From an uncultured Roseivirgaceae bacterium (lineage in GTDB: Bacteria; Bacteroidota; Bacteroidia; Cytophagales; Cyclobacteriaceae): a stretch of DNA of 61,760 nt. The stretch is from positions 1,745-63,504 of the forward strand of contig CAZONK010000001.1 in NCBI GenBank assembly GCA_964581095.1. Reading direction: 5' to 3'. The notes below the pieces were generated by a model that saw only the letters and a list, made by a program, of their open reading frames with translations, searched no databases and was not told the origin of the DNA. Position numbers and translations under genes: made by a program. This document shows, piece after piece, positions 2,593 through 50,091 of this stretch (position 1 is the first letter of the stretch; each line of letters opens with the position of its first letter).

Positions 2593-5212
2593 CCCCCAGG
2601 CATTTAACAGGATTGGAAAAGGACACTTTTATCACCTGACTTCCAATGGTCATCAACGATACTCCCAAGGCAACAAATGTTGCAACTACAAATAAAATCC
2701 AGTGTAAATCTATTCGATATGCAAAATTTTCCAGCCAATTATTCAATCCGAAAATAGATACAGGTATGGCAATGATGGAAGCAATGATCACAAGCCTTAA
2801 AAAATCTTTTGTTAAAAGACCCAATAGAGCAACAGGAGTTGCACCCAGAATTTTCCGGATACCCATTTCTTTAGTTCGGCTGGCGGTACTGAGGGAAGAC
2901 AAGCCAAGCAATCCAAGGCAGGATAACAATACTGCAATGGACGCGAGGTACAGGATAAGCTTCCCAAACCTATCTTCTGTATTATATTGTGCCTGATATG
3001 CCTGGTCGGCAAAATAGTAACTAAAGGGCCTCTTGGGACCCAACTTCATCCATTCCTCTTTCAAAATGGCAATTGTCTCGTTAATATTATGACTGGAAAT
3101 GTCCAGTGTTATAAAGGTGAAACGTACAGGGTCTATTTGAATAGTCAATGGTTGTATTATTTCTTTCAATGAATAAATATGGAAGTCCTTTACCACTCCC
3201 ACAACTGTACCCCGCCATCTATTCCATTGTTCAAATTCCTTCCCAATGACTTCATTTAGATTCGAATAACCAAGCTCCCTGGCGGCAGTTTCATTCATGA
3301 TCATGGCATTTTTAATATCTGATTGAAGATCTTTTTGAAATGCCCTGCCTGCCACAACTTCAATCCTATATTGATCTAGAAAATCAAAATCAACCCAATA
3401 CACATCAGCCTGGAAATTTTGGGTCTCACCCCCGGCTCCCTGAATTTTTGTATTAAATCTACGATTGGTTTGCCCGGGTACACACGAAGACATACTTATC
3501 TGTTCTACACCAGGAATGGCCATCAACTGCTGCTTGACAAATTTCCCGTTTTCTTTAATATTTCGATCGAAATAGAAATCCAAAATGAGTTTTTGTTTCC
3601 TGTCATATCCAAGGTCCTTATTTAACATAAATTGGATTTGTTGGTAAACAACAATTGTGGAACTGATAAGAACAATGGAAATAAAAAATTGAGTTACTAC
3701 CAACACTTTTCCCATGTTAAAGCCATGTAACCCCCCGGAAACAAATTTTCCTTTTATTCCATTGATTGCGTTAAATCCCGAGAGAAAATATGCGGGATAA
3801 ATGCCTGAAAATATGCCCAGGAAAAGTGTCAATACCAATAACCAGCCGAAGTGATGGGCATGATCAATAATATCTACGCTGATTTGTTTGCCAACTAGTA
3901 TTTGAAAATACGGGGATATCAAAACAAATAATATTGCTGCAAATCCATAAGCAACAAATGAAAATAACAACGCATCCCATAAAAATTGAAATACAAGATG
4001 TCTTTTTTCTACGCCCAATACTTTTCGTATGCTAATTTCCTTCACCCTGTTTAGGGACAGGGCTGTGGAAAGGTTTACAAAATTGAATCCTGCAATGAAC
4101 AATACGAAAATGGCAATAATGGCCAGAATGTAGATGTTTTTGATATTTCCAGCCACTGAAGACCCCGTACGCCACCCTCTCGGGTCTGCATGCAGATAAA
4201 TACTTTTTAATGGCTCCAGGGACATCTCGTACCTGGATTCGCTTTGGTCAATGCGGTTGCTTACAAAATCGGTTAGTTTGGCATGTAATGAAGTGAGGTC
4301 CGGATATTCCTCAAGTAGCAAGTAGGTATAGCACCCGAACAATGTCCAATTCTTTTTAATTGAGGGGTTCCATACATCGGTCAGTAATGACATTGATAAC
4401 AGTATATCTATCCTGAAATGTGAGTTTTGAGGCATATCCTTCATTACCCCGGTCACATAAACGGAAGTTGATCCGTCCAATATTATTTGCTCGCCAATAC
4501 AATTGGTAGACCCAAAATATTTGATTGCTGCACTCTCAGATAGGACAACACTATATGGTGTATCAAATACTTTATTTGGATTACCTGTTAGCAAAGGCAA
4601 TGTAAACAAAGAAAAAAGAGAAGCATCGGTATAAGCCACATCTTCCCTGGTATAATTATCCAGGCTGGATTGCACAATCATGTAGTCTAAAAACACCTGC
4701 GTAAACCCGGTTATTTCCGGAAAAGATTCAGCCATGGCCGGAGCCATGGGAATGGAAGAACTTTGAAGCTTAGTGCCTGATGCAGTTTTTACATCTGTAA
4801 CCAGTCGATAAATGTTGTCGGCCTTCTCGTTATACGCATCATAGCTCAATTCAAAATCCACATATATCAAAGCAAAAAAGCAAACCAATAATCCAATGGT
4901 CAATCCTACAAGATTAATGAATGTCAAAGATTTATGTTTTTGCAGATATCTAAAGGTGATTTTCATATGATTCTTAAACAAACCGAAATGGTTTAACCTA
5001 AGCGTTCCACCTACCGGCCGGATAATGGATGGCCTGAAAAGTTTCAATACATCCCAGGCAAATAACCACTTTGCTTTTTTTAGCCCTTCTCTTTTTACAT
5101 TTTCGTCAAAAAGTTCAATCAAATCCCCTTCGATATATTTTAACAATTCCGGATGGCAAAACCATCGGAAGAACAGAACAGGAATTTTTGGAGGTGAGGG
5201 CTTATCCTTCAT
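2585..5212 (-). CDS. FtsX/MacB-type ABC transporter permease, paralog of 7..2592
   Basis: 875-aa ORF with the same architecture and the same N-terminal prefix (RWFCHPELLKYIEGDLIELF). It lies 12 nt downstream of padR on the same strand. Confidence 0.85.
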   Translation of the reverse strand: MKDKPSPPKIPVLFFRWFCHPELLKYIEGDLIELFDENVKREGLKKAKWLFAWDVLKLFRPSIIRPVGGTLRLNHFGLFKNHMKITFRYLQKHKSLTFINLVGLTIGLLVCFFALIYVDFELSYDAYNEKADNIYRLVTDVKTASGTKLQSSSIPMAPAMAESFPEITGFTQVFLDYMIVQSSLDNYTREDVAYTDASLFSLFTLPLLTGNPNKVFDTPYSVVLSESAAIKYFGSTNCIGEQIILDGSTSVYVTGVMKDMPQNSHFRIDILLSMSLLTDVWNPSIKKNWTLFGCYTYLLLEEYPDLTSLHAKLTDFVSNRIDQSESRYEMSLEPLKSIYLHADPRGWRTGSSVAGNIKNIYILAIIAIFVLFIAGFNFVNLSTALSLNRVKEISIRKVLGVEKRHLVFQFLWDALLFSFVAYGFAAILFVLISPYFQILVGKQISVDIIDHAHHFGWLLVLTLFLGIFSGIYPAYFLSGFNAINGIKGKFVSGGLHGFNMGKVLVVTQFFISIVLISSTIVVYQQIQFMLNKDLGYDRKQKLILDFYFDRNIKENGKFVKQQLMAIPGVEQISMSSCVPGQTNRRFNTKIQGAGGETQNFQADVYWVDFDFLDQYRIEVVAGRAFQKDLQSDIKNAMIMNETAARELGYSNLNEVIGKEFEQWNRWRGTVVGVVKDFHIYSLKEIIQPLTIQIDPVRFTFITLDISSHNINETIAILKEEWMKLGPKRPFSYYFADQAYQAQYNTEDRFGKLILYLASIAVLLSCLGLLGLSSLSTASRTKEMGIRKILGATPVALLGLLTKDFLRLVIIASIIAIPVSIFGLNNWLENFAYRIDLHWILFVVATFVALGVSLMTIGSQVIKVSFSNPVKCLGDE

Positions 5213-42625: not shown

Positions 42626-42887
42626 ATGTGACAGTTGAATTCCTGCATCACAAGAATATCGTAATCAAAATAAGGATAATCAGCATCAGGTAAATTATCC
42701 CGATAATCACTTTATAAAAATTAAATTCTCGTTTTTTCATAGCATCCCTCCTGTTCTTTTTCGTTCTTGTATAGTATAGTGCAGATTCTGTACCGGAAAA
42801 GAAAATGTTGATTTCAGGCTTCTAATAGCCAATTTCAATTTCCAATTTATGGTATTTCATCCATTTTATGGACTTTATTCCCATTTT

Positions 42888-42970
42888 GGGATAGGATGTG
42901 GCACCCGTCCGAACGGAATTATCCGGGCAGGCAGCCCGGTTAGCACACCCCGATAGGTCGGGAGGGCCGC
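42888..42970 (+). pseudogene. Decayed 5' copy (positions ~3-50) of the downstream tRNA-Pro
   Basis: Exact blocks ggatgtggc, gcagcccggttagc, cacc and gggccgc are shared with 43238-43287. A 28-nt insertion interrupts the D stem, the anticodon arm is degenerate, and the T arm and 3' acceptor strand are absent. Confidence 0.75.
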
Positions 42971-42976
42971 ATTGAA

Positions 42977-43231
42977 ATGAATATTGTTTATATTCTCAAG
43001 TCAGAAACTACTGCACAATGGTACATTGGGTTTACCGAAAATCTAAACCTGAGATTGCTTGATCACAACACAAATAGATCTAAATGGACAAGATTTAAAG
43101 GGCCATGGCAACTAATATTTAAACGTGAATTTGTTAACAAATCGGATGCTTTGAAATTTGAAAGACAACTTAAGAAATCAAGAAATAAGAGATATATTTG
43201 CGATCGTTTTCAAGAATATTTTCTTGAGTAA
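42977..43231 (+). CDS. Stand-alone GIY-YIG nuclease domain protein
   Basis: 84 aa with the VYIL...WYIG (GIY-YIG), conserved Arg (RLLDHN) and Glu (KFERQLK) pattern. The stop codon lies 4 nt before the tRNA. Confidence 0.85.
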   Translation: MNIVYILKSETTAQWYIGFTENLNLRLLDHNTNRSKWTRFKGPWQLIFKREFVNKSDALKFERQLKKSRNKRYICDRFQEYFLE

Positions 43232-43235
43232 AACA

Positions 43236-43310
43236 CGGGATGTGGCGCAGCCCGGTTAGCGCACCACGTTAGGGACGTGGGGGCCGCTGGTTCGAATCCA
43301 GTCATCCCGA
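43236..43310 (+). tRNA. tRNA-Pro with anticodon AGG
   Basis: The manual cloverleaf is CGGGATG-TG-GCGC-AGCCCGGTTA-GCGC-A-CCACG-TTAGGGA-CGTGG-GGGCC-GCTGG-TTCGAAT-CCAGT-CATCCCG-A. U33, G37, G18G19 and the T-loop are canonical, and CCA is not encoded. Confidence 0.85.
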
Positions 43311-43314
43311 CTTC

Positions 43315-43352
43315 GCCCATCTGATTTCTACTAGAATGAAGGTGGGCTTTTT
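43315..43352 (+). terminator. Hairpin plus T-run after tRNA-Pro
   Basis: gcccatc (43315-43321) pairs with ggtgggc (43341-43347), including one G-T pair, and is followed by tttttcc. Confidence 0.45.
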
Positions 43353-43389
43353 CCTTCCTATTTTTTCCAATTTATCTTTGCTGAGCTTC

Positions 43390-43453
43390 GTCGGGCAGGC
43401 CCGACACTGAAGCAGAAAGCCATTGACGAAGTTGATGGCTTTCTGCTTCAGTG
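43390..43453 (+). other. Structured element of unknown function: GC palindrome plus a perfect 19-bp-stem hairpin
   Basis: The palindrome is gtcgggc-ag-gcccgac at 43390-43405. cactgaagcagaaagccat (43405-43423) is the exact reverse complement of 43435-43453, with an 11-nt loop between them. Confidence 0.6.
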
Positions 43454-49986: not shown

Positions 49987-50091
49987 AGTATTAAAAGTTT
50001 AAGTTAATTAAGGTTAATTGATTCAGGTTTTTCGGGAACCCCCGATTTAAAGTCACCAAGAATAGTACAATTTTTCCAATAATACCAATAT

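Follow-up and report, generated by a model that had tools for sequence, protein, structure and literature searches.

A putative homing-type GIY-YIG cassette with a tRNA gene fragment and a conserved palindrome beside a bacterial proline tRNA gene

Introduction

SegB of phage T4 is a GIY-YIG homing endonuclease encoded in a tRNA gene cluster; its 27-bp recognition site includes the T-psi-C motif, and it spreads by cutting the endonuclease-free allele and co-converting the flanking tRNA DNA (PMC2330249). A recent report credits it with promoting segmental amplification of anti-defence loci (PMC13096335). SegB is the closest experimental precedent for the locus described here, which lies in a 61,760-nt stretch of DNA (the window) from contig CAZONK010000001.1 of an uncultured Roseivirgaceae bacterium. 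In both cases a GIY-YIG gene sits among tRNA genes. Unlike SegB, the window protein is an 84-aa domain of the Slx1/UPF0213 branch, is encoded on the chromosome and has no close phage relatives, and its open reading frame (ORF) comes with a tRNA gene fragment and a conserved palindrome. SegB, as a Seg-type enzyme, is much larger than 84 aa and carries a DNA-binding part, and we know of no tRNA gene fragment or conserved palindrome at SegB loci. With the Seg/I-TevI class as a whole the window cassette shares sporadic presence and absence, but it lacks the DNA-binding domain of that class and comes from another GIY-YIG branch. We propose, with slightly more confidence than doubt, that about 0.35 kb of the window (~42889-43235) is a selfish homing-type GIY-YIG cassette lodged directly 5' of a resident tRNA-Pro(AGG) gene.

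A second group of elements also spares the tRNA genes it enters. Integrase islands insert at a tRNA gene, preserve it and leave a partial tRNA copy at the far end; they measure 9-23 kb or more, encode a tyrosine integrase and duplicate an exact attachment (att) segment, in one example a 44-bp direct repeat (PMC9897764). Integrase-borne elements and spacers of clustered regularly interspaced short palindromic repeats (CRISPR) are the known sources of tRNA gene fragments, which confuse tRNA annotation (PMC9897764). The window cassette is likewise a tRNA-preserving insertion with a partial tRNA copy, but at ~0.35 kb it is about 30 times smaller, it is the 5' part of the tRNA that is duplicated, and the duplicate is interrupted by a palindrome. 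Duplications at att sites typically derive from the 3' part of the tRNA. No integrase gene lies between fragment and tRNA in the window.

Other likenesses are more partial. The UPF0213 proteins (BH0048, 1zg2; EF2693, 1ywl; E. coli YhbQ) have the same minimal domain and fold and are the best matches in sequence and structure, but in descriptions of that family we found no report of the tRNA gene linkage, tRNA fragment or palindrome that accompany the window ORF. A 2006 survey presented the Slx1-like proteins of prokaryotes as the domain in its minimal form, mostly vertically inherited and without a known role; it recorded one fusion of the Slx1 family to a tRNA methyltransferase, did not mention tRNA gene linkage, and raised the question of whether other members of the superfamily are molecular parasites (PMC1564403). 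The bacterial stand-alone Slx1-like family is very large, and the present locus, together with its relatives, gives that question a concrete form. In the mitochondria of Allomyces, a free-standing GIY-YIG ORF at atp6 reportedly brings a replacement gene end and leaves the displaced end as a pseudogene. Such fungal mitochondrial ORFs resemble the window cassette as gene-preserving, partly duplicative insertions beside a conserved gene, and differ from it in having organellar protein-coding genes as targets, larger nucleases and no known conserved palindrome in the duplicate. GC-rich palindromic clusters are common in fungal mitochondrial genomes. The link between a short conserved palindrome and a small nuclease gene may also recall REP/RAYT and IS200/IS605 elements, although the enzymes there are of the HUH type rather than GIY-YIG and tRNA fragments form no part of the context.

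A search of full-text literature, whose coverage is incomplete so that an earlier description is possible, returned no published account of either small GIY-YIG cassettes linked to tRNA genes or the palindrome. If our proposal is right, such cassettes would be a new source of the tRNA gene fragments that confuse annotation (PMC9897764) and a cellular counterpart to phage SegB. They would help to explain the strongly rearranged tRNA loci of these bacteria, and a minimal pair of nuclease and site may interest engineering.

Parts of the locus

L-numbers (L002 and so on) denote comparison loci; coordinates are positions in the window unless they are given for such a locus. An intact tRNA-Pro with anticodon AGG occupies 43236-43311 (ARAGORN; Rfam tRNA, 61.6 bits, E 2e-12), preceded by an ORF at 42977-43231 that consists of a GIY-YIG domain only (Pfam PF01541, E 2.6e-15). 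Three blocks upstream of the ORF are repeated exactly in the tRNA: ggatgtggc (42894-42902 = 43238-43246), the 14-mer gcagcccggttagc (42931-42944 = 43247-43260) and gggccgc (42964-42970 = 43281-43287). The tRNA, ORF, blocks, insert, spacers and 12-mers named in an original prediction from the window's letters all stand in the sequence where it had placed them, with 6 nt (attgaa) between fragment and ATG and 4 nt (aaca) between stop codon and tRNA as it had claimed. The parts of the locus are as follows.

42889..42970, + strand: tRNA-Pro 5' gene fragment (T*), aligned with tRNA positions ~3-50 by blastn
42903..42930, + strand: GC-rich nested palindromic insert of 28 nt in the D arm of the fragment, without counterpart in L002 and L008
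42948..42963, + strand: cassette palindrome 'HP', cCCCGA-tagg-TCGGGa, at anticodon-arm positions 27-43 (pattern match)
42971..42976, + strand: spacer attgaa, 6 nt, from fragment to start codon; attgac in L002
42977..43231, + strand: predicted GIY-YIG nuclease ORF of 84 aa, Slx1/UPF0213 type (Pfam, alignments, AlphaFold 2 (AF2), Foldseek)
43232..43235, + strand: spacer aaca, 4 nt, from stop codon to tRNA nucleotide 1 (direct reading)
43236..43311, + strand: resident tRNA-Pro(AGG), outside the mobile unit; 100% identical to the tRNA of empty allele L154

Presence and absence at one locus

We compared the window with 28 family loci from one-genome-per-species contigs, at least 20 metagenome loci (many on short contigs) and further homologue contexts, and reached syntenic loci through orthologues of the upstream flank gene. 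The syntenic tRNA-Pro(AGG) carries the cassette in the window, L002-5 and L008 and is empty in L154/155, L157-159 and L160. Filled and empty alleles are interspersed by flank-protein identity to the window (filled: L002/L005 72-77%, L008 43%; empty: L154/L155 85%, L157-159 69%, L160 68%). The metagenome contig L002 has the gene order of the window: HAD hydrolase, ArsR, CarbopepD_reg-like protein, ORF and tRNA-Pro(AGG). The closest relative found, L154/L155, is empty; it keeps a 30-aa peptide gene, a 100% identical tRNA-Pro(AGG) and the same 3' flank. No ORF remnant, upstream fragment or palindrome was present in any of the empty alleles.

The window and L154 align at 86% identity from 43236, tRNA nucleotide 1, to 43463, and again to the left of ~42817, leaving 418 nt between ~42817 and 43236 without a counterpart in L154. 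Insertion at a resident tRNA gene, as had been predicted, is thus borne out both by empty alleles at the same syntenic locus and by homology that restarts exactly at the first nucleotide of the tRNA. The tRNA and ~150 nt of its 3' flank are common to L154, so both are resident; the alternative offered in the original prediction, that the mobile unit includes the tRNA itself, does not survive this comparison. As judged from these alignments, one orthologous locus has the cassette in some genomes and lacks it in others, a sporadic distribution like that of homing endonuclease genes.

This distribution bears on a reading in which the ORF is a host gene, co-expressed with tRNAs and coding either for a YhbQ/Slx1-like nuclease with a housekeeping or repair function or for an enzyme that acts on RNA; the fragments would then come from unrelated local duplications such as those of integrase elements at the same tRNA. 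Such a reading would be at home with the purifying selection on the ORF, with the mostly vertical inheritance of the Slx1 family and its one tRNA methyltransferase fusion (PMC1564403), and with independent 3' scars at the same tRNA-Pro and the tyrosine integrase gene that adjoins it in L182. It fits poorly with a gene that is patchy at one locus and lacking from the closest relative, with tandem copies whose number differs at one and the same locus, with a copy that is truncated, and with palindrome-bearing fragments that flank the ORF in 16/18 modules, which integrase scars would not explain. We consider a host gene very unlikely.

A conserved palindrome in the fragments

The sequence CCCGA-N4-TCGGG at 42949-42962 is the one match to this pattern in the window, where 0.20 are expected. 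What had been taken for a degenerate anticodon arm is in fact a conserved palindrome, whose CCCGA...TCGGG core recurs inside a tRNA gene fragment beside the ORF in 16 of the 18 modules with fragments. It reads tCCCGA-cagg-TCGGGa in L002. The 16 modules come from Bacteroidota, one Chloroherpeton genome and further metagenome bins. The palindrome occurs at tRNA-Pro(AGG) or tRNA-Pro(CGG) in the window, L002, L006-L012, L181, L182 and L183, where L181 (Imperialibacter roseus, complete genome CP136051.1) and L182 (Fulvivirga kasyanovii) are cultured carriers; at tRNA-Ser(GCT) in L018, a metagenome-assembled genome (MAG) of Chloroherpeton; at tRNA-Asn(GTT) in L029 and L184-189; and at tRNA-Lys(TTT) in L089. 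Variant forms are CCCGCC...GGCGGG at an Asn tRNA in L024 (Neomarinimicrobiota) and TCCGAT...ATCGGG at a Gln tRNA in L021 (Patescibacteria). The exact 14-base pattern was present in 10 of the first 33 loci, compared with ~0.01 matches expected across the examined fragments, an estimate from the window rate of 0.20 per 61.7 kb.

Palindrome and ORF are 12-41 nt apart, in either order, and the place of the palindrome in the tRNA varies: it is in the D loop (L010, L012, L182), in place of positions 27-43, after position 37 (Asn), or at the junction of T arm and acceptor 3' strand (second copy of L029). Its stem, TCCCGA/TCGGGA, shows no compensatory changes and its loop runs from 4 to 23 nt; the sequence is conserved although the most divergent proteins are only 34-38% identical. 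Because the acceptor stems of tRNA-Ser, tRNA-Asn and tRNA-Lys are unrelated to it, the palindrome, on sequence grounds, is part of the cassette and not of the tRNA. We also considered whether it is a joint of the two tRNA-Pro ends (TCCCGAC / GTCGGGA, the 3' end plus the 5' start), and rejected this as a general account since the same palindrome stands in Ser, Asn and Lys fragments with unrelated acceptors; such a joint could be its historical origin.

An invariant stem without covariation points to sequence-specific recognition by a dimeric protein, and the nuclease is the only consistently present candidate for that protein. In our reading the palindrome is a sequence-constrained part of the cassette, most likely either a DNA site for the dimeric nuclease or a patch that makes the fragment uncleavable.

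The same properties, an invariant non-covarying stem with a loop of variable length, the 12-41 nt spacing on either side, the varied tRNA positions and the nested and long forms, would suit an element centred on the palindrome. Palindrome and ORF would then form the mobile unit, a nuclease dimer would bind or cut its own palindrome, as an inverted repeat or as a hairpin, and the tRNA fragments would be by-products of repeated cutting and repair at tRNA loops. Cutting of the donor copy alone, however, leaves spread to empty alleles unexplained, and the empty alleles have no palindrome. A palindrome-first search of viral contigs gave 120 sites, of which only L089 had a cassette or nearby GIY-YIG gene, so the pattern alone is not diagnostic. 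Family members from the candidate phyla radiation (CPR) and SAR11 lie 3-270 nt from a tRNA without the palindrome and mostly without detectable tRNA fragments. An element of this kind seems to us unlikely.

Maintenance of the upstream fragment

The window fragment contains the acceptor 5' strand and D arm, the palindrome in place of the anticodon arm, the variable loop and the first bases of the T stem, and it lacks the 3' third of a tRNA. Its blocks are collinear with the tRNA and the similarity is far above chance; in the whole window only seven repeated words of at least 12 nt are spaced 50-600 nt apart, the 14-mer among them. Between 42000 and 44000 there was no Rfam tRNA match at E<=10 other than the real tRNA, and ARAGORN made no call in the fragment itself. 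Orthologous fragments are present in L002, L008, L181 and L183.

The original prediction held that the ORF and a replacement 5' two-thirds of the tRNA had landed in the T stem of a tRNA-Pro gene and that the upstream fragment was the displaced original, left to decay. Signs of decay are real in the window copy, which has lost two acceptor bases and has one D-stem mismatch and a 28-nt insert. In the window, L002, L008 and L089 the fragment does stop within the T stem or T loop, and a TAnnTTTG-like -7 box, read by eye, precedes the fragment directly in L010 and L012 as it precedes the tRNA in empty alleles. The fragment nevertheless tracks its resident tRNA. Lineage-specific tRNA variants are mirrored in it (gtGgc versus gtAgc, agCcc versus agTcc, and the CGAGGTG acceptors of L008, L181 and L183), and in L006, L007, L008, L009 and L011, whose tRNAs differ between genomes, the partial copies match the local tRNA at 100% identity over 28-32 nt. 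The parts of the leader that are not tRNA-derived are conserved as well. Over 38 nt (D-stem 3' strand, palindrome, variable loop and the ATTGAM before the ATG) the window and L002 are 84% identical, whereas 56% of synonymous sites in the ORF differ (pS 0.56; synonymous divergence, dS, ~1). The intergenic DNA further upstream of the fragment gave no alignment between these two loci.

Because the fragment follows the local tRNA and the leader is better conserved than synonymous sites, the fragment, by these comparisons, is maintained; selection would account for this, as would ongoing gene conversion with the tRNA. The decaying duplicate thus drops out of the earlier model, which had itself named a conserved functional leader as grounds for giving it up. 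The displaced-copy model is further opposed by the replacement of the anticodon arm with one conserved palindrome in independent modules at four isotypes, by the recurrence of that palindrome at unrelated tRNAs, by a mirror layout in close relatives, and by the fact that the promoter region of the empty alleles was not found upstream of the window fragment. We regard it as quite unlikely.

The 28-nt insert at 42903-42930 is built as ACCCG-TCCGAACGGA-ATTATC-CGGGCAG and shares this nested build with the long-form palindrome of L089, CCCGA-TCCGCAACGGCGGA-...-TCGGG. A loose regular expression for the nested build matched only the window and L089 among the GIY-YIG loci. The fold of the insert alone was not significant.

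A constrained leader that abuts the start codon, a fragment that stays identical to the resident tRNA, a nuclease without a targeting domain, and repeat arrays upstream of the ORF in L018 and L089 might also suggest a role at the RNA level, with the tRNA-like leader acting as a regulatory or guide RNA (in autoregulation, mRNA stabilisation, as an antitoxin-like repeat or as a homology guide). In the mirror layout, though, the fragment lies 3' of the ORF and a translational role would not be general; the stem shows no covariation, and no Rfam family was matched. We give such a role very little credence. Two related candidates were rejected. As a structured leader, the window leader folds no better than shuffled sequences (z -1.5), and its hairpins alone are not significant. 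As a circularly permuted or split tRNA, the fragment would need palindrome flanks that run on as the expected tRNA parts, and they do not.

Linkage to tRNA genes, layouts and copy states

The original prediction had suggested checking other small GIY-YIG ORFs for association with tRNA genes, and the association holds: a same-strand tRNA lies within 400 nt of the ORF in 23/28 genome loci, and partial tRNA copies are frequent. The linked isotypes are Pro, Met, Gln, Glu, Asn, Ser, Arg and Gly, and the hosts include Cytophagales, Chitinophagaceae, Chloroherpeton, Neomarinimicrobiota, Patescibacteria, Peregrinibacteria and Pelagibacteraceae. In 21 of the best 150 family representatives, N-terminal extensions of the protein are translated tRNA arms. 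A Chitinophagaceae copy is 57% identical to the window ORF, compared with 48% for some Cyclobacteriaceae copies (identity values only).

The modules occur in two layouts. In layout U the order is 5' fragment with palindrome, ORF, tRNA (window, L002, L008, L010, L012, L181, L182, L183); in layout D it is tRNA, terminator, ORF, 3' fragment with the same palindrome, terminator (L006, L007, L009, L011). Both are found inside the protein clade of the window ORF, and the original suggestion of a mirror image of integrase elements, which carry a replacement 3' end, is not borne out as a defining property. Modules built in this way, in either orientation and also in tandem, are found at several isotypes and in several phyla.

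Copy states also vary. Tandem copies of fragment plus ORF are present in L012, L024 and L185/186, with a single copy in L184 at the same locus as the last pair; arrays of fragments without an ORF are found in L018 and L089; and the ORF is truncated in L031 and eroded at its N terminus in L021. In L010 (2501-2773) and L012 (2501-2791) the ORF lacks its own stop codon and ends inside the next tRNA sequence, at a TAG within the tRNA D loop (GGTTAGC) in L010 and within the following tRNA fragment in L012. If RNase P cut the L010 transcript at the 5' end of the tRNA, the mRNA would be left without a stop codon.

Several individual loci merit separate mention. L184 and L185/L186, from different metagenome samples, share the flanks RecR, YbaB and a 607-aa gene and, at a locus that is otherwise identical, have one and two tandem units, respectively, of ORF plus tRNA-Asn 3' fragment; the difference looks like a recent duplication or loss within one population. 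In L089 (IMGVR_UViG_3300048038_000024, filed as viral), positions 1-900 hold at least three tandem ORF-less tRNA-Lys 5' fragments with short and long palindromes, followed by the tRNA, an ORF, a 3' fragment that has an additional insert in its T loop, and the beginning of a second copy of the ORF. In L182 (2469-3692), a tyrosine integrase gene lies directly 3' of the tRNA-Pro(AGG) that carries the GIY-YIG cassette on its 5' side, so that one tRNA gene is used by two kinds of element. In L183, from a MAG of Bacteroidota that is a complete genome, the tRNA-Pro with its cassette has as neighbours an IS110-family transposase gene and an inverted gene for a WG-repeat protein of 871 aa (600-1640 and 1-349), the latter resembling a gene downstream in the window; judged by gene order, this neighbourhood is rearranged.

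The predicted nuclease

The original prediction had described a GIY-YIG protein that consists of the catalytic domain alone. This was confirmed: the Pfam match (56.9 bits against a cut-off of 22.6) covers residues 2-72 and there is no further domain, and by Pfam and AF2 all 84 aa belong to the catalytic domain, with no DNA-binding or auxiliary domain. Among 36 diverse members Y5, G18 and E62 are invariant and Y16, R26 and H30 nearly so, and all six are invariant in a 12-member alignment. The ratio of nonsynonymous to synonymous divergence (dN/dS) against the L002 ORF (73% identity) is 0.15, indicating purifying selection. The AF2 model has a predicted local distance difference test score (pLDDT) of 94.6 and the order strand-strand-helix-strand-helix-helix. 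Searches of PDB with phmmer returned 1zg2 (BH0048, 5e-8), 1ywl (EF2693, 0.004) and Slx1 (0.013), with no match to UvrC or I-TevI. Foldseek ranked BH0048 1zg2 first, then Slx1 (TMq 0.63-0.69) and EF2693, with the I-TevI catalytic domain farther away (TMq 0.55). By sequence and predicted fold, the ORF belongs to the domain-only Slx1/UPF0213 (YhbQ-like) branch of GIY-YIG nucleases.

The family is large, with 3953 cluster representatives at E<=1e-3 in a library of 1.8 billion proteins. A word-index protein search with the single ORF recovered 2 proteins only. A tblastn search of a phage collection gave one weak match, in a Rhizobium phage, and no close phage homologue; PADLOC gave only partial matches of 17-18 bits, and PHROGs none.

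Proposed mechanism and its weak points

In the homing-type reading that we favour, the nuclease would break the cassette-free tRNA gene, in or beside the gene, and repair would copy the cassette from a filled allele, with the fragment and the intact tRNA as homology arms. The fragment has no normal anticodon arm or T arm, and only one functional tRNA-like copy would result, so that the tRNA is preserved. Repeated breaks could lead to homogenisation of fragment and tRNA, to tandem duplications by unequal exchange and to precise loss, and layouts U and D would be set by which side of the interrupted region bears the long arm. Transcription of the ORF would start at a promoter before the fragment and make it the 5' leader of the tRNA precursor, from which RNase P would release it. 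Tight junctions between ORF and tRNA, from -24 to +4 nt, support this leader reading, and Bacteroidetes -7 boxes, again read by eye, stand directly before the fragment in L010 and L012 and before the tRNA in empty alleles. That RNase P defines the 3' end of the nuclease mRNA, as originally suggested, is plausible.

Several points weigh against this proposal. Both the cleavage activity of the nuclease and its target are predictions, and the 84 aa form a catalytic domain only, with nothing like the DNA-binding module to which classical GIY-YIG homing endonucleases owe their long sites. The filled allele retains an intact tRNA gene, and its escape from cleavage is unexplained. An immunity patch could be any sequence, yet the palindrome is kept between cassettes with 34-38% identical proteins. 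The divergence of the ORF between the window and L002 (73% identity, dS ~1) is similar to that of the flanks, which would fit long vertical residence with losses as well as it fits repeated homing. Poor conservation of the upstream intergenic DNA kept the left junction from being mapped to the base; upstream of its fragment the window has no homology to the promoter region of the empty alleles and shares with them a short host palindrome alone. Finally, since the CPR and SAR11 relatives are without the palindrome, fragment and palindrome together are not universal to the family.

A bolder extension is that domain-only GIY-YIG nucleases and a cognate 16-17-bp palindrome in tRNA gene fragments form a so far undescribed, phylum-spanning class of mobile mini-elements that home on tRNA genes with a targeting logic of their own. 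The palindrome and the tRNA-derived flanks would then supply the specificity module that the nuclease lacks, the palindrome acting either as DNA to which a protein binds or as the handle of a guide strand, derived from a tRNA, by which cuts are directed to the tRNA gene. We regard this extension as rather unlikely, though with a real chance of being right.

The 12-mer repeat and scars 3' of the tRNA

Three further features of the window lie outside the cassette.

42839..42850, + strand: upstream 12-mer tttccaatttat, with its partner at 43364-43375; judged outside the element (chance level, partner in shared flank)
43315..43352, + strand: terminator hairpin 'A' with T run, common to empty allele L154 (fold -16.2 kcal/mol, z -3.3)
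43390..43453, + strand: older 3' scar, independent of the cassette, with GTCGGG-cagg-CCCGAC (comparison with L002, L154, L157 and L160)

A 12-nt direct repeat had been thought to bracket the module. The repeat exists, at 42839 and 43364, but it is not an element boundary. Pairs of 12-mers 50-600 nt apart number 7 in the window, compared with ~5.8 expected from Markov shuffles, and the copy at 43364-43375 lies in the flank shared with empty L154 (86% identical), where it reads gttccaattcat. We therefore rejected a target-site duplication: such pairs are not in excess, and a second copy in downstream DNA shared with a cassette-free allele cannot have been made by the cassette. The 12-mer tttccaatttat also resembles one half of a host palindrome described below.

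The CCCGAC at 43400-43405 is a displaced tRNA 3' end that is still joined to its original flank, hairpin 'B' (43406-43453, fold z -7.7); the B sequence comes directly after the intact tRNA end CCCGAC in L002 and L157. The segment 43390-43453 is conserved in empty alleles L154, L157 and L160. The displaced end is preceded by a conserved reverse palindrome, GYCGGRCARGYCCGAC. The reverse-order pattern occurs twice in the window, compared with 0.09 expected; the second match, TCGGGAACCCCCGA at 50032-50045, is far from any tRNA and is probably due to chance. Independent 3' scars are found at the same tRNA in the window (43312-43453), L157 (4716-5010), L158, L160 (4641-4870) and L183 (2480-2500). 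Relatives have repeated tRNA 3' ends of 17 nt or 6 nt, each with a copy of terminator A, and lineages differ in which of A and B comes first. These scars may be remnants of cassettes in the order tRNA-ORF-fragment or of integrase elements.

Neighbouring features

A host palindrome, ATTCCCA-N4-GGGA(A)TAG, adjoins the window fragment and lies ~130 nt upstream of the tRNA in L154. In the more general form TTCC(C)A-N3-4-TGG(G)AA it recurs upstream of the tRNA in filled and empty loci: in the window at 42868-42888 and ~42840-42853, in L002 at ~2068-2085 and ~2308-2325, in L154 at ~4424-4444, and in L156, L157 and L160. It may be an operator for a local regulator, an ArsR-family gene being nearby.

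Divergent from the tRNA locus, on the minus strand, is a conserved gene for a 30-aa hydrophobic peptide (42648-42740 in the window, 4195-4287 in L154) with a GGAGG-like motif upstream. The peptide reads MKKREFNFYKVIIGIIYLMLIILILITIFL in the window and MKRTEFNFYKLIIGIVYLMLIVLILITVFV in L154 and is probably a real small membrane protein.

The proline tRNA has the anticodon AGG (A34), with or without a cassette, in the window, L002, L006-8, L010, L012, L031, L154-160 and L181-183, all Cytophagales-like. In most bacteria A34 is limited to tRNA-Arg(ACG) (PMC8007984). The A34 tRNA-Pro suggests either an expanded substrate range of TadA or an unmodified A34 in this lineage.

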